Origin: Nitrospirota bacterium
GTDB taxonomy: Bacteria > Nitrospirota > UBA9217
Direction of reading: 5' to 3'
DNA length: 64,000 nucleotides
Assembly: GCA_035625205.1 (NCBI GenBank)
Contig: DASPQB010000253.1
Location: forward strand, 4,930-68,929
Shown piece after piece: positions 21,706 through 49,668 of the stretch. The first letter of the stretch is position 1. Each line of letters opens with the position of its first letter. The position numbers were made by a program, and so were the translations under genes. The notes below the pieces were generated by a model. The model searched no databases. It was not told the DNA's origin and worked only from the letters and a program-made list of their open reading frames with translations.

Positions 21706-21921
21706 AGTTTTTTATACCTGCGAACATCCCGAGAGCCTCTTTTTCACTTCTCGAGGTTCCCGTAACTGGTTCCAAACTCTCAAAAAATAAAAAACCGTAT
21801 CCGGTCAGGATACGGCTCGAAAGGTCTTTGGTAATAAAATGCTCGCCTTCCCTACGCCGGCACTACCCGGATCAGGTTCTAAGGGTCGTCCTTTCGGGAC
21901 TCTCAGCCTCTTGGCTCCCCC
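21706..21921 (-). promoter_or_regulatory. TPP (THI-box) riboswitch with intrinsic-terminator expression platform, leader of thiSGEC
   Basis: Minus-strand aptamer GGGGGAGCC..GGCTGAGAGTCCC..ACCCTTAGAACCTGATCCGGGTAGTGCCGGCGTAGGGAAGG matches the THI-element consensus (CUGAGA, ACCUGAUC, GGCGUAGGGA). Followed by hairpin CCGTATCC-tgac-CGGATACGG plus a U-run (~21786-21815) before the thiS start. Confidence 0.8.
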
Positions 21922-22898
21922 AGCATACTATAGGTTAACAATACGGCAAGATAGGCATAAAGTCAATTATTTTCTCAAATCATACACGTATGCTTTTCAG
22001 TATTGCGGCAGATGAAATTGCAGGTGCCGTTTATGCTTGTTTCCTTAATCATTTAATTTGCGAGGGCACCTTGCAACAGAGCTGTTCCGAATCTACCTCC
22101 TCGTACATTCCATGATCGGCGAGACATCAGATTTCCCTGCCTTCGCCAAACGTACAACCGCCGGCACAGCGCGAGAACCGTGCTTTTTTCTCGTATCCGG
22201 ATAGCTGTTGGGCGCTCATTTCCCATTCCGTCATACCGTAAAATTTGCCTGCGCTGAAGCGTAATTTGAACTATAGGGACACTGAAACAACGCTGCCGCA
22301 TCAGTGGTCCTAGCCATAGATCAGACACGTGTCTTGCCGAGATCGTCGAGCACCATACCGGCCACAACCGAGCTCAGCTCGTACCGATTGTCTTTGGGAT
22401 ATGCACGCTCTGCGATGATCCTGCCGTTTTCTCCTTGAAGGAGAGCGCACGGTGACGAGATACGCTGGAACAAAATCGGTAAACAGACGCGACGATGGTC
22501 GAACATTATCTCCTCGATCACGCCCCTCGAACAACGGGAAGCAAACGGGGTTCTGACCTGCGACCCGGCGAGTTCCTCGCCGAAAAGGTTTTGGAGCGAC
22601 TTCTATGGCGAAGTACAAAATATTTACGTTGCTAGCCCACTATACGGACAAATATATTCAAAGTATTGTTGAAGAAAATATGATAACGGCATGTTCACCA
22701 CCCAAAATGGTTTGTCTCATTTTTGGTCATGCGTGATAGTAAAAAATGTTAGTTGACTTTCATGATGCTTTTGCATTAATATTCGCAAAATATCATTCTT
22801 TGTAATTCCATCCATGATTCCACTTCCGTTCTTTGCCAAACGATTTAGATAAAGGTCATTACGATAAACTCATCACATTCAACCAAGGAGGGTTTAAA

Positions 22899-24149
22899 AT
22901 GCGCCGTAACATCTGGTGGTGTTTGGTCATTGGATTATCTCTAATATGCATAAGTATGCCTTTTCCCGTCACAGCCAAGGAAGACTGTATAAAAGCCGCA
23001 AAACTTTCTGATGAGGCAGGCGATCTTGTTTCATCGGACCCGCAACTTGCTGAAAATAAACTTCACCAAGCGCTTTACTACTGCGATTCAAGCGCAGCAT
23101 TGCATTACAACCTTGCAATGGTCCTCATCAGCAATCAAAAACCCGCTGAAGCAGCGAAGCAGTTGGAATTCGCACTCAAGCACAATCCGAAGTATGCCAA
23201 GGCGTTGAATGCTCTTGCCTATCTCTACGCCACAAAGGCCGGAGGAGACCAGGTAAAAGCAAAGCAACTGGCCCAGAATGCCGTAGCTCTCGAACCGGAT
23301 AACGAACAGTACCGACAAACCCTCGAAATGATAACCAGCAACATCGAGGTGGCCCCCCGAACAGCAGTTCGCAGGCCCGATGCTGTAGCGATCATTATCG
23401 GCAATAAAAACTACCAGGACCGCCACATCCCGACAGTTAAATATGCGTACCAGGACGCCGCGCTGGTAAGAAAGTATCTCGTTAACACCCTTGGTTTTGA
23501 TGAGAAGAACATCGTTATGGTCAGCGATGCAAAAAAGGACGACTTTGAAAAATTTTTTGGCACTGAGAGCAATTATAAGGGGTTCTTGTACAACCATGTC
23601 ATCCAAGACCGTTCCGATATTTTTATTTACTATTCCGGCCATGGTGCACCGGACACCAATACGAAGAAAGCATACCTGGTCCCCACCAGCGCCGATCCGA
23701 GTTACATCAATATCACCGCTTATTCACTCGATCTCCTCTATGGGAACCTGGAAAAATTGGATAACGACAAAAAACCCAAAAGCATTACCGTGGTTCTCGA
23801 CTCCTGCTTTAGCGGCGGATCCAATGGGGGCATGATTATCAGGGATGCCAGCCCTATCTTCATTGAAACGACAACCCCGCTTCTTACAATGGACAACGCC
23901 GTGATATTTACCAGCTCCCAGGGTGACCAGATCAGCTCCTGGTATTCGGAAAAACAACATGGACTCTTCACGTACTTTTTCCTGAAAACGATCAAAACGG
24001 CCGCGGAAAATGGCGCTCATTTGACCGCAGAAGACATGGAAAAAGCGCTCCAGGAGCCTGACAGTATAAATGATTATGCGCGGAAATTGTACAACCGTGA
24101 ACAGGTACCCCAGATTACAGGCAATAAAAAGATAACCCTGATTCCTTAG
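22899..24149 (+). CDS. Secreted TPR-repeat protein with C-terminal caspase-like (peptidase C14) domain
   Basis: RBS AAGGAGG 7 nt upstream of the ATG at 22899. Signal peptide MRRNIWWCLVIGLSLICISMPFPVTA. TPR repeats (~aa 30-170). Caspase p20-like core with AVAIIIGNKNY, catalytic His in IYYSGHGAPD and catalytic Cys in VVLDSCFSGG. The ORF-table start at 22833 is probably too far upstream. Confidence 0.8.
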   Translation: MRRNIWWCLVIGLSLICISMPFPVTAKEDCIKAAKLSDEAGDLVSSDPQLAENKLHQALYYCDSSAALHYNLAMVLISNQKPAEAAKQLEFALKHNPKYAKALNALAYLYATKAGGDQVKAKQLAQNAVALEPDNEQYRQTLEMITSNIEVAPRTAVRRPDAVAIIIGNKNYQDRHIPTVKYAYQDAALVRKYLVNTLGFDEKNIVMVSDAKKDDFEKFFGTESNYKGFLYNHVIQDRSDIFIYYSGHGAPDTNTKKAYLVPTSADPSYINITAYSLDLLYGNLEKLDNDKKPKSITVVLDSCFSGGSNGGMIIRDASPIFIETTTPLLTMDNAVIFTSSQGDQISSWYSEKQHGLFTYFFLKTIKTAAENGAHLTAEDMEKALQEPDSINDYARKLYNREQVPQITGNKKITLIP

Positions 24150-24201
24150 TGGTCTTACAGAAAGCTTATATTGGAATGCAATGGAAAATAGGAGGACCTT
24201 G

Positions 24202-24609
24202 ATGAAAAAATTAATCGCCTTGGCCATCATGCTGTCAATCGCCATCCCCCTTCCGGTTCGCGCCGGGCTGACACCTGACTTCGAGCCCGTTGAACAGAAC
24301 TTGATTGACCAGCAAAAACAACAGGAAGAACAGGAACGCCTGCAAAAGGAGCAACAGCAGCAAGAACAGCAAAGGCTTGAAAATCAAAGAATTCAGCAGG
24401 AAATGAACAAGGGACTGCAGCAGCCTGCGCAGCTAACGCCTCAGCAGGCGCCAGTAGCGAAAAAATCAGGCTCGACCTGGTGGATATGGGTGCTTGGGAT
24501 ACTGGCTGTTGGCGGTATCGCTGCAGCCGCAGGAGGAAGTCATGGCAGCAGTAGCAGCAGTAGCAGCAGTGGCGGAGGCAGTACGGGTGCTGTCTCGGCA
24601 CATTGGTAA
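24202..24609 (+). CDS. Gln/Glu-rich coiled-coil protein with signal peptide, C-terminal TM helix and Ser/Gly tail
   Basis: RBS AGGAGG before the ATG at 24202. Signal peptide MKKLIALAIMLSIAIPLPVRAG. Low-complexity QQKQQEEQERLQKEQQQQEQQRLENQRIQQE block, TM helix WWIWVLGILAVGGIAAAAGG, poly-Ser tail. Confidence 0.5.
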   Translation: MKKLIALAIMLSIAIPLPVRAGLTPDFEPVEQNLIDQQKQQEEQERLQKEQQQQEQQRLENQRIQQEMNKGLQQPAQLTPQQAPVAKKSGSTWWIWVLGILAVGGIAAAAGGSHGSSSSSSSSGGGSTGAVSAHW

Positions 24610-24692: not shown

Positions 24693-27600
24693 ATGAAACG
24701 AATGTTCATTTTATTCCTGGCAATCAGTTTCTCTTCCTTCCTTCTCATCGGGTGCGGCTCTCAAGGATCGCAAAATAGCGCTACCGGTACCGGATCGATT
24801 GCATTTCAAGCCCAATGGCTCGGCTCGGCCCCGGTGACGCAGCAAGCACATGCTACATCCGAATCGCCTGTTATCAGGACCGCCCCTGCAAACGTTACAA
24901 CCGTCCAGTTGATTATTTCTGGTGCGGATATGGCCACGATAGGTCCAATTAGCTTCGCAGCTTCCGCAGGGGTAGGAACCATCAGCGGAGTACCAGTCGG
25001 ATCCGACCGAACACTCCTCATGCTCGGGCTAAACTCTAGCAACACTGTTGTTTACCAGGGCGTGAGCTACAACATCACTGTTACTGCAAACCAAACGTCG
25101 AATGCCGGAACGATTGTCCTGGCACCCGTTGTGGCGGGTGGACTCTCAGTCCCATGGCAAGTCGCGGTGGACTCCACTAATATTTACTGGACCGAACAAG
25201 GCACAGGGACGGCCGACGGCTTTGTGAAAAAGATGTCTATTGCGACGGGAGTGATAACCACCCTGGCAAGCGGTCTCTCCGACCCGGTGGGGATCGCCAT
25301 TGATGCAAGCTTTGTCTATTGGACGGAATACGCGCAAGGGACGACCGGCCTTGGCTCGGTCAAAAAAATCAGCATCTCGGGCGGCACAACGCCTACGGTG
25401 CTTACCTCAGGAATCTCGGGTCCCTGGGGTATAGCTGTAGATGGGACCACTGTCTACTGGACCGAATACTTGAACAGCGGTTCGGTTATGAAAATCAACA
25501 AGAATAGCATTAACAGCGCTGGCACAACCCTTGTATCTGGCCTGGCATGGCCCCTCGGGATTGTAGTGGATGCGACCAATGTGTACTGGGCGGAGAACCC
25601 AGCGAACGGCGGAGCTGTAAAGAAAATTCCTATCGGTGGAGGAGCCGCAACGACTCTTGCGACCAGTTTGAGCAGCCCCACGTATATCGCAGTGGATTCG
25701 ACGAGTGTGTACTACACAGAGTACGGTACCGAAGACACAAGCGGGAACACAATTGCCGCCTCGGGAAGCCTGAAAAAAGTATCGTTATCTGCGTCATCAT
25801 ATCCTACGACACCGACAACGCTTGCCTCCGGCCTCAACTATGCGGCAGGTATTGCAGTGGACTCAACGAACGTCTACTTCACGGAATTTGGCTTCTCAAT
25901 CGGCTCGGTCAAATACGTACCGATAAATGCCAGCAACGCCACACCGACGCCTGTTGTGATTAACCTTCCCAATGGCACGACAACATCGGCTACTGGCCTG
26001 TATGCCCCCTATTACTTGGCTATTGATCCAAGTGACCAGTACGTGTATTGGACCGAAAGCAATTCAGGAACGATCAAGCGGGCAATCACAGGTACGTCGA
26101 GCACAACCGCACCTTCTGCACCTACAGGCGTAACGGCCACTGCCGGGAATGCGCAGGTAGCTGTAAGTTGGACGGCCTCCACCGGCGCAACATCGTATAA
26201 TGTCTACTATTCAACGTCTGCCGCTGTGTCTACCTCAAGTTACATCGGTTTGATCTCAACGACAACTACCACAGCCACTGTTTATGGACTTGCTAATGGT
26301 ACAACGTATTATTTCATCGTCACTGCTGTCAACGGAGCAGGACAGAGTGCAGCATCCAGTCCAGCGGCATCAGCAGTACCTTCGGCGGTCATAACCACTC
26401 CGGCTGCTCCTACAGGTGTAACGGCCACTGCCGGGAATGCGCAGGTAGCTGTAAGTTGGACGGCCTCCACCGGCGCAACGTCGTATGATGTCTACTATTC
26501 AACGTCAGCCGCTGTGTCTACCTCAAGTTACCTCGGTTTGATCACAACAGCCACGAATTCCGCTCTTGTGTCAGGACTCACTAACAGTACAACGTATTAT
26601 TTCATCGTCACTGCTGTTAACGGCGCCGGACAGAGCGCAGCATCCAGTCCAGCGGCATCAGCAGCACCGTCGGCGGTCATAACGATACCGTCTGCTCCTA
26701 CAGGCGTAACCGCCATAGCAGGAAATGCCCAGGCGACCTTAAGTTGGACGGCCTCCACCGGCGCAACGTCGTATGATATCTACTATTCAACGTCGGCCGC
26801 CGTATCCACGTCAAGTTACATCGGTTCGTTCTCAACAACGTCGACCTCAGACATTATCTCAGGACTTACTAACAGTACGACGTATTATTTCATCGTCACT
26901 GCCGTCAACAGCGCAGGTCAAAGCACAGCGTCCACTCCAACAGTCTCTGCTATGCCATCAGCAAGTATCCTATATCAGTTCAGCTCCATAGATGTGCCCA
27001 ATGCGGTCAATACGTATGCCACCGCAATCAACAGCACCGGCCAGGTAGTTGGATACTACTGGGACTCAAGCAATATACAACACGGCTATTTACTTACTTC
27101 AGGAACATTCTCTACCATTGATTATCCGGGAGCCACGGTGGAGTGGGGGACCGAGTTGTGGGGAATTAACGATTCCGGAGCTATTGTCGGAGCACATGGT
27201 CCAGTCTACATTGGTGTTGCTTATGGTTTCGTTTTGTCCGGCGGGGTTTTCACTTCAATTAATTTCTCCACTGCCCCCGGCAGCGCTCTCGGAGCAAATG
27301 CCATGGGAATCAACAATGCCGGCCAGGTCGTGGGAGAGTATGAGGCCGGGTCTGCTCCCACTTCTTTTTGTCCGTCCTGCGTATTTCCATCAAATCCCGC
27401 TATTGGCTATTTGGATACTGCAGGGAGTTACACTGCATTTATCCCCGCAGGGTCTGGGAGTAGCACTGCCAACGGCATCAATACAGCCGGCAAGATTGTA
27501 GGCGGATACTATGACTCAAGCCTCGCGGGACACGGTTATACGTATTCTGGAGGAGTCTTTACTACTATTGATTTCCCCGGAGGGGGTGGCTCCAATTCGA

Positions 27601-27827
27601 GCAATAACAAACTTTTTAAAATCAATGATAACGGACAGATGGTGGGAGAATACGTGGACTCAACGGGCAAATGGCATGGCTATCTGTATAACGGAACTAC
27701 CTTTACAACTATTGATGTGCCCAATGCCACCGGTACGTTTACTCTTGGCATCAACAATTCTGGGCAGATCGTGGGATATTGGACCGATTCCAGCAGCAAA
27801 GCGCATGGTTTTATAGCAACGCCATGA
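24693..27827 (+). CDS. Large surface lipoprotein: YWTD-type beta-propeller + 3 fibronectin type III domains + HAF-like C-terminal repeats
   Basis: Lipoprotein signal MKRMFILFLAISFSSFLLIGCGS. Seven ~43-aa blades, each ending in a YWTE-type motif (STNIYWTEQG, SFVYWTEYA, TTVYWTEYL, TNVYWAENP, TSVYYTEYG, TNVYFTEFG, QYVYWTESN), with P-GIAVD between blades. Three 96-aa Fn3 repeats (SWTASTGATSY..YYS..TYYFIVTAVN). Six C-terminal ~45-aa repeats IN(N/D)xGQ(I/V)VG..(Y/W).DS...HG(Y/F). Confidence 0.8.
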   Translation: MKRMFILFLAISFSSFLLIGCGSQGSQNSATGTGSIAFQAQWLGSAPVTQQAHATSESPVIRTAPANVTTVQLIISGADMATIGPISFAASAGVGTISGVPVGSDRTLLMLGLNSSNTVVYQGVSYNITVTANQTSNAGTIVLAPVVAGGLSVPWQVAVDSTNIYWTEQGTGTADGFVKKMSIATGVITTLASGLSDPVGIAIDASFVYWTEYAQGTTGLGSVKKISISGGTTPTVLTSGISGPWGIAVDGTTVYWTEYLNSGSVMKINKNSINSAGTTLVSGLAWPLGIVVDATNVYWAENPANGGAVKKIPIGGGAATTLATSLSSPTYIAVDSTSVYYTEYGTEDTSGNTIAASGSLKKVSLSASSYPTTPTTLASGLNYAAGIAVDSTNVYFTEFGFSIGSVKYVPINASNATPTPVVINLPNGTTTSATGLYAPYYLAIDPSDQYVYWTESNSGTIKRAITGTSSTTAPSAPTGVTATAGNAQVAVSWTASTGATSYNVYYSTSAAVSTSSYIGLISTTTTTATVYGLANGTTYYFIVTAVNGAGQSAASSPAASAVPSAVITTPAAPTGVTATAGNAQVAVSWTASTGATSYDVYYSTSAAVSTSSYLGLITTATNSALVSGLTNSTTYYFIVTAVNGAGQSAASSPAASAAPSAVITIPSAPTGVTAIAGNAQATLSWTASTGATSYDIYYSTSAAVSTSSYIGSFSTTSTSDIISGLTNSTTYYFIVTAVNSAGQSTASTPTVSAMPSASILYQFSSIDVPNAVNTYATAINSTGQVVGYYWDSSNIQHGYLLTSGTFSTIDYPGATVEWGTELWGINDSGAIVGAHGPVYIGVAYGFVLSGGVFTSINFSTAPGSALGANAMGINNAGQVVGEYEAGSAPTSFCPSCVFPSNPAIGYLDTAGSYTAFIPAGSGSSTANGINTAGKIVGGYYDSSLAGHGYTYSGGVFTTIDFPGGGGSNSSNNKLFKINDNGQMVGEYVDSTGKWHGYLYNGTTFTTIDVPNATGTFTLGINNSGQIVGYWTDSSSKAHGFIATP
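26100..26963 (+). repeat. Three tandem 288-bp near-identical repeats (the Fn3-encoding units) inside the lipoprotein gene
   Basis: Repeat landmark ACAGG(C/T)GTAAC(G/C)GCCA at 26124, 26412 and 26700 (period exactly 288 bp). Copies 1 and 2 are nearly identical at nucleotide level over >250 bp; copy 3 is more diverged. Confidence 0.85.
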
Positions 27828-27883: not shown

Positions 27884-27919
27884 CAAAAAAAGGCAGGCCA
27901 TGTTGGCCTGCCTTTTTTT
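27884..27919. terminator. Bidirectional rho-independent terminator between convergent genes
   Basis: AAAAAAA-AGGCAGGCC-atgtt-GGCCTGCCT-TTTTTT: perfect 9-bp GC-rich stem with an A-run and a T-run on either side, 57 nt after the 24693..27827 stop. Confidence 0.75.
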
Positions 27920-28244
27920 ATCGAGAGCCCTAACCCATCTTCCGCAGTTAAAAATTCAAAGTTCCAATAAATCAGTTTCTTAGCTCGCACAATTGGCAAA
28001 AGTCGGCACTACACGCGGTTTTTAAAAATCACCAGTAAAAAAATCAATATGTTGGTTGCTCAAATCGGCTCAAAATAGTTTAAAAGATGATCAATCTGCG
28101 GAAGATGGGCTAGCGTTACATTTGGGGCTTCCTTACATCCGTTTTTCTTGATATGCATCCGTCTGATTCGGGTCTTGCAGAGGGATTGGAAATCTGCAAC
28201 ATCCCCTCCACAAATTAGACGAATCATCTGCCAGCACGACGTTG

Positions 28245-29090
28245 TTACTCTCTCACCTCATACCCCACCGTACTTTCCGCCCACAGCGAGGGATCGAGGT
28301 CTGACAGCTCTTTCATCAGATCAGTAATTGTGGGGTTTTCCAGGGATTTGTCGGCAAGGAGCGATGTTTTTTCTTTCGTGGCGATCACGAGTACAGATTC
28401 GATAGATTGTTTTACTCCCTTGGGTGTCTTCACCTTAAGCCGGAGCCCCCGGTCCCTGGTAGTGTTATCGGGGAATATGAACTCTGTTTCCCCGGCCAGA
28501 GCAGCCTTCTGCTGCTTAACGTAAGAATTCGGATAGAGTTTGCTTACGTTCCCGTACTGGTCCACGCTGAAAAGCTGGAGGAATGCGTCTTCATTGGTAG
28601 TGATCCGAATCTGAATCTCGTCATTATTCTGGAAGACTGGGCTCTTTGCCGCAAGATCCATGTCCGGCCTCTGTACCGAAGCCGATGTGATCGAGAAATT
28701 CCCTTTTCTTTCGATATTGAGCGGCTTTATGGATGCCTTAATCTTGGCAACGCACAGAAAACGCCCATCCGCAATTTTACAGGAGTTATCCAGAAGTTGT
28801 TCCTGGACGATAATCCCCTTGGTCGCCGTCCTTACCAGATCGTTGATAAGGATATTATTGTACACGACCGATGAACCACGCACCTCTATCCCCGTCGCTT
28901 TTTCAAGTGCATCCCTGCGAGCGTTGTTCAAGGCCGTGACCTTGCCTTGGGACATGGTAGCGTCCTCTCCCAGATTCGCCTGTCCTTCGCCTTCTACCAC
29001 TTTTAACTCGTCAGCGGCAAAGAGCGGTGATAAGATCATGAAAAATACTACTATGAGGAACAGCAGTCTGAGAATTATAGTCTTCGTCAT
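28245..29090 (-). CDS. Secreted LPP20-like N-terminal domain + DUF4384-like C-terminal domain protein
   Basis: RBS AAGGGAG before the ATG. Signal peptide MTKTIILRLLFLIVVFFMILSPLFAADE. N-terminal GEGQANLGEDATMSQGKVTALNNARRDALEKATGIEV resembles LPP20/FlgP. C-terminal DEIQIRITTNEDAFLQLFSVDQYGNVSKLYPN ... FIFPD ... VLVIATKE resembles the DUF4384 pattern. Confidence 0.55.
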   Translation of the reverse strand: MTKTIILRLLFLIVVFFMILSPLFAADELKVVEGEGQANLGEDATMSQGKVTALNNARRDALEKATGIEVRGSSVVYNNILINDLVRTATKGIIVQEQLLDNSCKIADGRFLCVAKIKASIKPLNIERKGNFSITSASVQRPDMDLAAKSPVFQNNDEIQIRITTNEDAFLQLFSVDQYGNVSKLYPNSYVKQQKAALAGETEFIFPDNTTRDRGLRLKVKTPKGVKQSIESVLVIATKEKTSLLADKSLENPTITDLMKELSDLDPSLWAESTVGYEVRE

Positions 29091-29164
29091 ATTATGCTCC
29101 CTTGGTCATGAATGATACACAAGATTTCCAATCTAAACAAACCGTTAATGATTGTATATCACGT

Positions 29165-32534: not shown

Positions 32535-32610
32535 TGGAGCGGGCGACGGGTCTCGAACCCGCGACCCCAAGCTTGGGAAGCTTGTACTCTACCAGCTGAG
32601 CTACGCCCGC
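32535..32610 (-). tRNA. tRNA-Gly (anticodon CCC)
   Basis: Minus-strand sequence GCGGGCGTAGCTCAGCTGGTAGAGTACAAGCTTCCCAAGCTTGGGGTCGCGGGTTCGAGACCCGTCGCCCGCTCCA. Perfect 7-bp acceptor stem, D arm, anticodon stem CAAGC/GCTTG with loop TTCCCAA, T arm GTTCGAGAC, encoded CCA. Confidence 0.85.
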
Positions 32611-48874: not shown

Positions 48875-49668
48875 GCAAAAAAATGTCGTCATTCATCGGC
48901 TTGCTGCAGAGAAGAACTTTCACGAGGGAAGATTAAAATATTATAACACAGCAACAGGCAAGAGAGAACGCTCAGGGATGTCATAGCTCATGTTGACGTA
49001 CTCCCAACGCTAAAGAACGTAGGGCTACCCACGCCATTTCCCTAAACGTAAATCGGGATAGGGGGGAGCCTCTCGGCTCCTCCCCTCCCACACCGTGCGT
49101 ACGGCTGCGTACACGGCAGTTCGGCTGGTTAAGCGAACGCTTCTCGCCTCGCTTTGGGTAGGCAGTGTTTCGCAAGCGTTTCGGTCCTTGTCGGTGTCCC
49201 TCGGGGCTTCACCCCTACCTTCACCGTGAACAGCTATACTGGATTTTCTGCCGCATTACGTTGGCAGTTTCATCCTACATGCAACTCCAACCGTTTGGGC
49301 CTTCGCCCCGCCACGGGACTATGATGCCCTCTGCGGACTTCTGCGCCACGGTCAGGAAACCTCACGGCTCCCTCAGTCTCGATTCCGGGACATGACGCAG
49401 ATCTCCCGAGGTAAATTCGACCGCCTTCCGCGCACAACCGCTGGATTTACGCCCTGCGCCTTTGATGGATGTCGACATCGCGATCATTTGCCCGCTCGTG
49501 GGGCACTCACGCCTCATAGCCGGTTTTTGTTCATCGGCTCGCGCGTTTGCTCCACGCTTCTTTCAGACCCCGCGTCTCGATGAAGCCCTTGCGCTTCGCT
49601 AACCCTTCGCCTCCATCAGGCTGGGTAGCGGACTCGCACCTCCAAACTGTCGAACATGCTCGGCACAC

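Follow-up and report, generated by a model that had tools for sequence, protein, structure and literature searches.

A free-standing, exported DUF4384 protein with a FlgT_N-like domain as a probable partner of caspase-like C14 proteases

To our knowledge, almost none of the abundant bacterial orthocaspases has a known substrate, regulator or physiological role, and DUF4384, among the commonest of their accessory domains, has no assigned function that we are aware of. Envelope proteases with dedicated adaptors are known from another peptidase family: in NlpI-Prc and LbcA-CtpA an S41 protease is paired with an adaptor. In the portions of the literature available to us, DUF4384 is described as an accessory domain in 23 cyanobacterial orthocaspases, as occurring with 'different protease domains', as the C-terminus of proteins that combine trypsin and pseudo-p20 domains, and as a domain that 'often co-occurs' with kinase domains; it is also reported there on trypsin-like proteases, on Ser/Thr kinases and on Csx30. 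The last is the substrate, in the type III-E CRISPR (Craspase) system, of the TPR-CHAT protease Csx29, by which its N-terminal domain is released from the C-terminal one. Here we consider a 64,000-nucleotide stretch of the genome of a Nitrospirota bacterium (assembly GCA_035625205.1, contig DASPQB010000253.1, positions 4,930 to 68,929; the whole stretch is referred to below as the window), in which an initial annotation, made from the sequence alone, had placed a gene for a secreted DUF4384-like protein at 28245-29090, facing a caspase operon. An open reading frame has exactly these coordinates on the minus strand, and encodes a protein of 281 residues with an N-terminal FlgT_N-like domain and a C-terminal DUF4384 domain (Table 1). 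The initial annotation took DUF4384 to be normally an appendage of caspase-domain proteins; the association with C14 is indeed known, but the domain also sits on the trypsin-like proteases, kinases and Csx30 mentioned above. Here it belongs instead to an exported protein of its own, in which it is joined to a putative SHS2 domain. Among the texts mentioning DUF4384, in the portions available, we found no description of a stand-alone FlgT_N-like plus DUF4384 family or of its operon with C14, though descriptions elsewhere are possible.

An exported, free-standing DUF4384 joined to a FlgT/FlgP-like domain defines a large family that is tightly coupled to exported, motif-intact C14 proteases and sometimes fused to them. 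The 281-residue protein is very probably a functional partner of the C14 protease, and a non-catalytic one, because genes of the family lie almost always next to, or are fused to, a gene for an exported caspase-like protease. A scan of species-representative genomes yielded 27 loci, which were analysed by tblastn, purpose-built hidden Markov models and clustering of open reading frames. A C14 gene lies within ~6 kb of the family gene in 18 of the 20 loci counted as informative (family gene intact, flanking sequence long enough), and is also its neighbour in all three close metagenomic relatives, so that homologues mostly do have a C14 gene nearby. His and Cys motifs are retained in every neighbouring C14 protein whose contig covers that region; where the N-terminus is complete, it mostly starts with a signal-peptide-like or lipobox-like sequence, which suggests that these proteins are exported. 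The 64-kb window itself contains one C14 gene and one family gene.

In relatives of 57-83% identity the block found in the window is kept whole: cobUTSC and the family gene point towards a convergent unit of big protein, small protein and C14, beyond which lie the thi genes; taken alone, such conservation in close relatives could be inherited synteny. Outside the window's clade the cob and thi genes are gone and C14 is kept, nearly always upstream and co-directional. Only part of the Nitrospirota has the convergent layout; the usual one is C14 followed by its partner on one strand, with the C14 stop codon overlapping or abutting the start of the family gene in four loci (L008, L014, L017, L022). 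A second recurrent operon runs from C14 through an LPP20-like lipoprotein and a secreted trypsin-like protease to the family gene (L010, L011, L013, L015), with a variant in L016; the short contig L021 holds the LPP20-like, trypsin-like and family-gene set, and ends before any C14 gene. In L023 a single strand carries the LPP20-like protein, trypsin-like protease, family gene, C14, a small transmembrane protein rich in Gly and Ser, and a PD40 propeller lipoprotein, and the two convergent units of the window are therefore joined there in one co-directional array. Conversely, no C14 gene is present in L027-L030, the four loci in which the family gene is not intact; two of them, L027 and L029, keep the cob-thi synteny, lack the caspase island, and retain only fragments of the family gene (residues 1-74 at L027:9921-10492 and residues 241-281 at L029:9887-11091).

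The pattern extends well beyond close relatives. A homologue search against 5.8 billion proteins retrieved 180 homologues, which among the matches listed are mostly of 262-295 residues, conserved end to end and mostly from Nitrospirota, and a full HMMER search of 1.84 billion representatives gave 3200 matches at E<=1e-3 and 552 clusters at E<=1e-10. Among the best 150 of these clusters, 136 have the N-terminal domain and DUF4384 together, 97 are stand-alone proteins of 255-320 residues, and three carry C14. The separate DUF4384 protein had been thought a special split arrangement; with 97 of the 150 best clusters, the stand-alone two-domain form is instead the dominant architecture of the family. 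Contigs were examined for seven distant representatives (~25-30% identity), five of which have enough flanking sequence, and C14 adjoins the family gene in all five: it is immediately upstream with a gap of 11 nucleotides in L032, 49 in L034/L035 and 61 in L038/L039 (where two C14-partner pairs stand in one array), upstream with a 4-nucleotide overlap in L036, which also has a Kelch propeller gene upstream, and present as a partial gene downstream of the family gene in L040. The two pairs of L038 (L038:1-8834) are separated by three genes without a Pfam family, an arrangement that looks like tandem duplication of the module.

Direct fusions are found as well. P0218 joins C14 (residues 49-283), the N-terminal domain (376-466) and DUF4384 (498-584) in one chain, P0245 has the same order, and P0227 combines C14 with DUF4384 only. 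In other members a further domain precedes the module, namely a c31-type LPP20-like domain in P0122 and P0144, a bona fide LPP20 domain in P0171, and, in the 903-residue P0155, an N-terminal FHA domain and multihaem cytochrome c domains ahead of the complete two-domain module, an unexpected architecture for a presumed protease partner. A significant DUF4384 match, homologues mostly near C14 and the existence of C14 fusions thus lend support, from sequence comparison, to the functional tie to the caspase that the initial annotation had proposed. Its suggestion that the protein works in trans likewise accords with gene context and fusions, from which we infer that it acts together with the protease in the periplasm. 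With somewhat less assurance than for the partnership as such, we consider it probable that the protein is a periplasmic, non-lipidated, non-catalytic partner of the exported TPR-C14 protease, and the free-standing form of a module that is elsewhere fused to C14.

The gene is preceded by a Shine-Dalgarno sequence, AAGGGAG, at 29097-29103, 7 nucleotides before its ATG. The N-terminus of the protein, MTKTIILRLLFLIVVFFMILSPLFA followed by ADE, reads as a signal peptide, in agreement with the export first proposed, and the peptide is presumably of the signal peptidase I type since there is no lipobox cysteine: Cys is absent from residues 1-30, so the protein is not of the lipoprotein type that had been supposed, and a lipobox-like motif occurs in only one of 97 stand-alone family representatives. 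No catalytic motif was recognised in the 281 residues, and NCBIfam has no model for the protein. Three blocks are conserved in the family alignment: the N-terminal domain, DUF4384, and a near-invariant C-terminus, W-x6-GYEVR[EK]. AlphaFold2, run on this alignment, returned a confident model (mean pLDDT 87, pTM 0.73). In it a strand, a helix, an insert and two long strands (residues 30-123) are followed by an unstructured linker (124-133) and by a beta-sandwich (134-281) whose final strand is the invariant C-terminus.

The DUF4384 assignment was confirmed by a significant Pfam match (PF14326, residues 153-240, E=1.8e-13, 50.8 bits against a gathering threshold of 27), and the same model matches all 41 family members and 140 of 150 representatives. 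In the predicted structure the domain is ~150 residues long, nearly twice the length of the Pfam model, and runs ~40 residues past it to the near-invariant GYEVR[EK]. The protein shares with orthocaspases and other DUF4384-bearing proteases the same Pfam domain, above threshold and associated with C14; it differs in being a separate exported protein, not a C-terminal appendage, and in having a putative FlgT_N/FlgP-like SHS2 domain in front. A Foldseek search of the whole model against the PDB returned generic immunoglobulin-like sandwiches only (RhoGDI, the Wzt carbohydrate-binding domain, adhesin repeats, PEBP), with E-values around 1e-3 and TM-scores of 0.2-0.3, from which no functional assignment followed.

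The identity of the N-terminal domain is less direct. It had been called LPP20-like, which holds at the level of superfamily and fold only: Pfam LPP20 (PF02169, gathering threshold 25.9 bits) has no match to the 281-residue protein even at E<=1, and reaches E=0.02 in only one of 41 family members. Pfam FlgT_N (PF16548, threshold 28.8 bits) has sub-threshold matches only, in eight of the 41 members (best E=0.025) and in 13 of 150 representatives (best E=1e-4). Searched against the PDB, the family profile matches chain 9hmf_C at E=0.004, or E=0.001 with the N-terminal domain alone. Entry 9HMF is a model of the Campylobacter jejuni flagellar motor, and the accompanying paper attributes to its fitted FlgP trimer an SHS2-like fold common to Lpp20 (5OK8), FlgT (3W1E) and dodecin; chain 9hmf_C, named 'Lipoprotein, putative', is presumably FlgP, as a chain of 171 residues in three copies fits that trimer. 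A separate model of the domain (pLDDT 76) has the same SHS2-like topology, and Foldseek counts FlgT (3w1e, probability 0.97, TM-score 0.53, E=0.038) and several dodecins among its closest PDB folds, with every E-value above 0.02. The closest detectable relative is the N-terminal domain of a 424-residue FlgT_N-like protein encoded directly after the family gene in L010 (L010:7032-8306); hhalign aligns the two with 89.9% probability (E=1.7e-6, 91 columns), and the L010 protein is itself FlgT_N by Pfam at 25.9 bits, just under the 28.8-bit cut-off. In both models a helix crosses one face of a three-stranded sheet, and the remote-homology lines agree, none being decisive alone. Our conclusion from profiles and predicted structure is that this is probably a remote FlgT_N/FlgP-type SHS2 domain outside Pfam LPP20.

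Other candidate relationships were rejected. Kinship with the LPP20-like lipoproteins of the same operons (cl11, c31) is not seen by hhalign (probability 0.2%), and the profile of those lipoproteins had no match in the PDB. Transitive evidence for LPP20 fell away as well: two of six LPP20-matching distant members were mapped (P0171, the one above-threshold match among them, and P0242), and in both the match sits on an extra domain before the module, not on the N-terminal domain. Matches of the N-terminal profile to a TAL effector and to ribosomal protein S20 were due to an Ala/Asn-rich helix and were disregarded. FlgP, FlgT and Lpp20 are structural proteins located near the outer membrane, often oligomerising. 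The domain of the window protein resembles FlgP, the FlgT N-terminal domain and Lpp20 (InterPro IPR024952) in its predicted order of strand, helix, strand and strand with an insert after the helix, in its predicted periplasmic location, in the weak FlgP profile match, and in having FlgT and dodecin as nearest folds; it differs in falling under the Pfam LPP20 and FlgT_N thresholds and in lacking a lipobox, and flagellar genes are absent near most loci of the DUF4384 family.

Several observations weigh against partnership with the caspase, or against a definite form of it. L006 has an intact family gene with no C14 within 10 kb, and a subfamily of 33% identity in L025 likewise lacks a nearby C14. 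In the window the family gene is co-directional with cobUTSC and begins 74 nucleotides after cobC; no terminator was detected in this spacer, so read-through from cobUTSC is possible, and the gene may be transcribed with the cobalamin genes instead of with the caspase operon. Linkage and fusion, moreover, fit the roles of inhibitor or substrate equally well, and the fold matches of both domains are generic or statistically weak, so that no ligand can be named. The cob arrangement raises the alternative that synteny has merely been inherited, the gene being the last of a cobUTSC operon, or encoding an unrelated envelope protein with no tie to the caspase. Its position downstream of cobC with a Shine-Dalgarno of its own would suit such a history, as would the retention of the cob, partner, caspase and thi genes as a block in close relatives and of the family gene without a caspase cluster in L006. 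Yet outside the clade, where the neighbourhood lacks cob and thi genes, C14 is still adjacent, two other genes stand between cobC and the family gene in L007, and C14 fusion proteins exist. The pure-synteny or cob-operon explanation is contradicted by these distant neighbourhoods and fusions, and we consider it highly improbable; co-transcription with cobC in this particular organism is possible.

Given a partnership with C14, our tentative preference is for an adaptor or scaffold, though we would not put it at an even chance; an inhibitor or regulator is possible at a lower likelihood, a substrate is less likely again, and other roles account for the rest. As an adaptor, the 281-residue protein would position or gate the protease in the envelope: its DUF4384 beta-sandwich might bind the protease, or an envelope ligand or target, and the FlgT_N/FlgP-like SHS2 domain might mediate self-association or docking to structures near the outer membrane, as in FlgP, FlgT and Lpp20. 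It would act alongside two products of the caspase operon, the small membrane protein and the propeller lipoprotein. We favour this role because the attachment of DUF4384 to several catalytic domains that are unrelated to one another is suggestive of a module with a general function in binding or targeting, and because the relatives of the N-terminal domain are structural proteins close to the outer membrane. In principle such an arrangement would be analogous to NlpI-Prc and LbcA-CtpA, in which a non-catalytic periplasmic partner positions or gates an envelope protease. There is no relationship of sequence or fold to these systems, however; the protease here is C14, not S41, and the TPR element is found in the protease, whereas in NlpI-Prc and LbcA-CtpA it is in the adaptor.

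The direct coupling of the partner gene downstream of the protease gene in many loci recalls staphostatins, small beta-barrel proteins encoded downstream of their protease, staphopain. By this comparison the protein would be a dedicated inhibitor or latency factor, co-expressed to hold C14 inactive until a signal arrives, and the fused forms could carry it as an autoinhibitory domain. We regard this as unlikely. DUF4384 is also found on kinases, trypsin-like proteases, the FHA/cytochrome protein and Csx30, which argues against a C14-specific inhibitory fold; general binding or targeting is the likelier function for a domain that occurs on trypsin-like proteases and kinases as well. Neither the profile search against the PDB nor Foldseek found similarity to a known protease inhibitor. 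The window, moreover, has the protease and partner genes on opposite strands, an arrangement that does not require the two to be expressed in fixed proportion.

The linker between the two domains raises another alternative, in which the neighbouring C14 protease would cut its partner, as a substrate, at this exposed site and so separate the SHS2 domain from DUF4384. The DSCFSG sequence around the catalytic Cys of the window's C14 protein resembles that of Arg/Lys-specific metacaspases and orthocaspases; the ten-residue linker is disordered in the model, and its E-[KR]-[RK]-G motif, whose two basic positions have K or R in 35 and 32 of 41 sequences respectively, is conserved in the Nitrospirota clade. 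The basic pair is not family-wide, since D-P is common at those positions (39 of 97 and 34 of 97 sequences), and the linker was accordingly rejected as a general cleavage site, the pair being clade-specific only. Fusions of C14 with the module suit an accessory domain better, autoprocessing being possible in them. Csx30 provides the precedent for cleavage: in the portion of the literature available, one Csx30 group has a C-terminal DUF4384 on a flexible linker and is paired with a TPR-bearing caspase-like protease. Csx30 is described there as cytoplasmic and as encoded with Cas7-11, Csx31 and RpoE, whereas the window protein is predicted to be exported, has a different N-terminal domain, and is encoded between cob and thi genes without cas neighbours; no cas7-11 or csx29 was found in the neighbourhood, which consists of cob, thi and thioredoxin genes. 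On balance a substrate role of this kind seems to us quite improbable.

The window copy is an ordinary member of its family, so that it is the pattern across the family, more than the locus itself, that gives the observation its value. The pattern points to caspase-like proteolysis in the periplasm, not to cytoplasmic pathways of cell death or defence. A defence-system reading was rejected, as PADLOC was negative for the partner and all components look exported; in the window it had no match for the DUF4384, small or large proteins and only its generic caspase model for C14. A broader and speculative proposal, to which we give a small chance, is that C14, the FlgT_N-like plus DUF4384 protein and their recurrent neighbours (LPP20-like lipoproteins, the secreted trypsin-like protease, the small membrane protein and the beta-propeller lipoprotein) would together constitute an unrecognised and widespread periplasmic caspase system of Gram-negative bacteria. 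If this were true, the FlgP/FlgT-like domain would build a scaffold near the outer membrane and DUF4384 would be a general docking domain for caspase-family proteases, and its occurrence on Csx30, orthocaspases and trypsin-C14 proteins would be accounted for as well. The family in any case provides a defined pair of proteins on which the role of DUF4384, and of periplasmic orthocaspases, can be tested.

Table 1. Coordinates of the DUF4384-family gene, its domains and the adjoining features in the window
Feature	Position	Strand	Evidence or remark
DUF4384-family gene (FlgT_N-like + DUF4384, 281 aa, exported)	28245..29090	-	Open reading frame, 180 full-length homologues, AlphaFold2 model
Signal peptide, residues 1-25	29016..29090	-	Sequence reading; helix at residues 3-20 in model
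N-terminal SHS2-type domain, residues 26-123 (strand, helix, insert, strand, strand), FlgT_N/FlgP-like	28722..29015	-	
Interdomain linker, residues 124-133, E-[KR]-[RK]-G	28692..28721	-	Model without secondary structure there; residue frequencies
DUF4384 beta-sandwich domain, residues 134-281	28248..28691	-	Pfam, alignment, AlphaFold2 model, Foldseek
74-nt spacer, cobC stop to DUF4384-family gene start	29091..29164	-	Contains Shine-Dalgarno
TPR + Peptidase_C14 (orthocaspase-like) protease, exported	22833..24149	+	C14 E=2e-14
Small 142-aa protein: signal peptide, Q/E-rich segment, transmembrane helix, Ser/Gly tail	24181..24609	+	Open reading frame
1044-aa lipoprotein (lipobox LIGC): beta-propeller, three Fn3 domains, HAF repeats	24693..27827	+	Last gene of caspase operon
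Bidirectional intrinsic-terminator-like hairpin, A7-GGCAGGCCA...TGGCCTGCC-T7	27885..27919	.	Inverted repeat I2, fold, L001 copy
~184-bp insertion, MITE-like, outside caspase system	27930..28113	.	18-nt inverted repeat; absent from L001

The family gene, on the minus strand, faces the caspase operon as first described; the latter is on the plus strand and comprises C14, small protein and 1044-residue lipoprotein. The likely start of the C14 protein is M23, at 22899, which gives a signal-peptide-like N-terminus, and its catalytic dyad is intact, with His in YYSGHG and Cys in DSCFSG. The small-protein gene has no family assignment and is conserved directly after C14, as cluster 14 in loci of the window's type and as c137 in L023 (L023:12162-12458); counterparts of the propeller lipoprotein occur in L001, L007, L023 and L036. 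Upstream of the family gene and in the same direction lie cobU, cobT, cobS and cobC, and past the C14 gene a thiamine pyrophosphate (TPP) riboswitch is followed by thiS, thiG and thiE. The riboswitch is an ordinary one (21831-21931, minus strand, RF00059, 69.4 bits). Between it and the C14 start, ~900 nucleotides (21932-22832) contain no credible open reading frame and no Rfam match, and are either a long divergent regulatory region or something unannotated.

The two convergent units had been said to share a terminator, and a hairpin between them has 16-nucleotide arms that are 100% complementary and flanked by A7 and T7, so that it could, by its sequence, terminate in both directions. It lies 58 nucleotides from the stop codon of the 1044-residue gene and 326 from that of the DUF4384-family gene; the claim of a shared terminator is reasonable, since a perfect hairpin separates the units, but is to be qualified by the latter distance. 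The same GGCAGGCC/GGCCTGCC hairpin is present in the 83%-identical relative L001, ~140 nucleotides after the family gene stop. The greater distance in the window is due to the ~184-bp element, inserted between the conserved 3' region of the gene and the terminator, whose ends are an 18-nucleotide inverted repeat, CTAACCCATCTTCCGCAG / CTGCGGAAGATGGGCTAG, around an AT-rich 148 nucleotides. The only copy in the window, it looks like a miniature inverted-repeat transposable element (MITE). A structured intergenic RNA was considered and rejected: Rfam gives only sub-threshold matches, to the terminator hairpin, and the fold z-score of -5.3 is accounted for by the terminator and the inverted-repeat insertion. 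The sites returned by a simple scan for promoters and terminators did not outnumber those in shuffled sequence; the scan also missed the perfect hairpin, whose T-run is part of the stem.

Insertions beside the family gene recur elsewhere, toxin-antitoxin genes or PIN-like open reading frames having entered there repeatedly in different lineages (Phd/PIN, MazE/PIN, DUF2442/DUF4160; L003:10909-12288, L032:4843-5531, L004:2995-3423, L009:595-990); for those of L004 and L009 the PIN-like label is a reading of the sequence. The window also contains a tRNA gene (32538-32610, minus strand, RF00005, 64.8 bits) between the cobU and thioredoxin-family genes, and farther away matches to group II intron domains at 49298-49584 on the minus strand (RF02001, 94 bits; RF01998, 43 bits) suggest a mobile intron.

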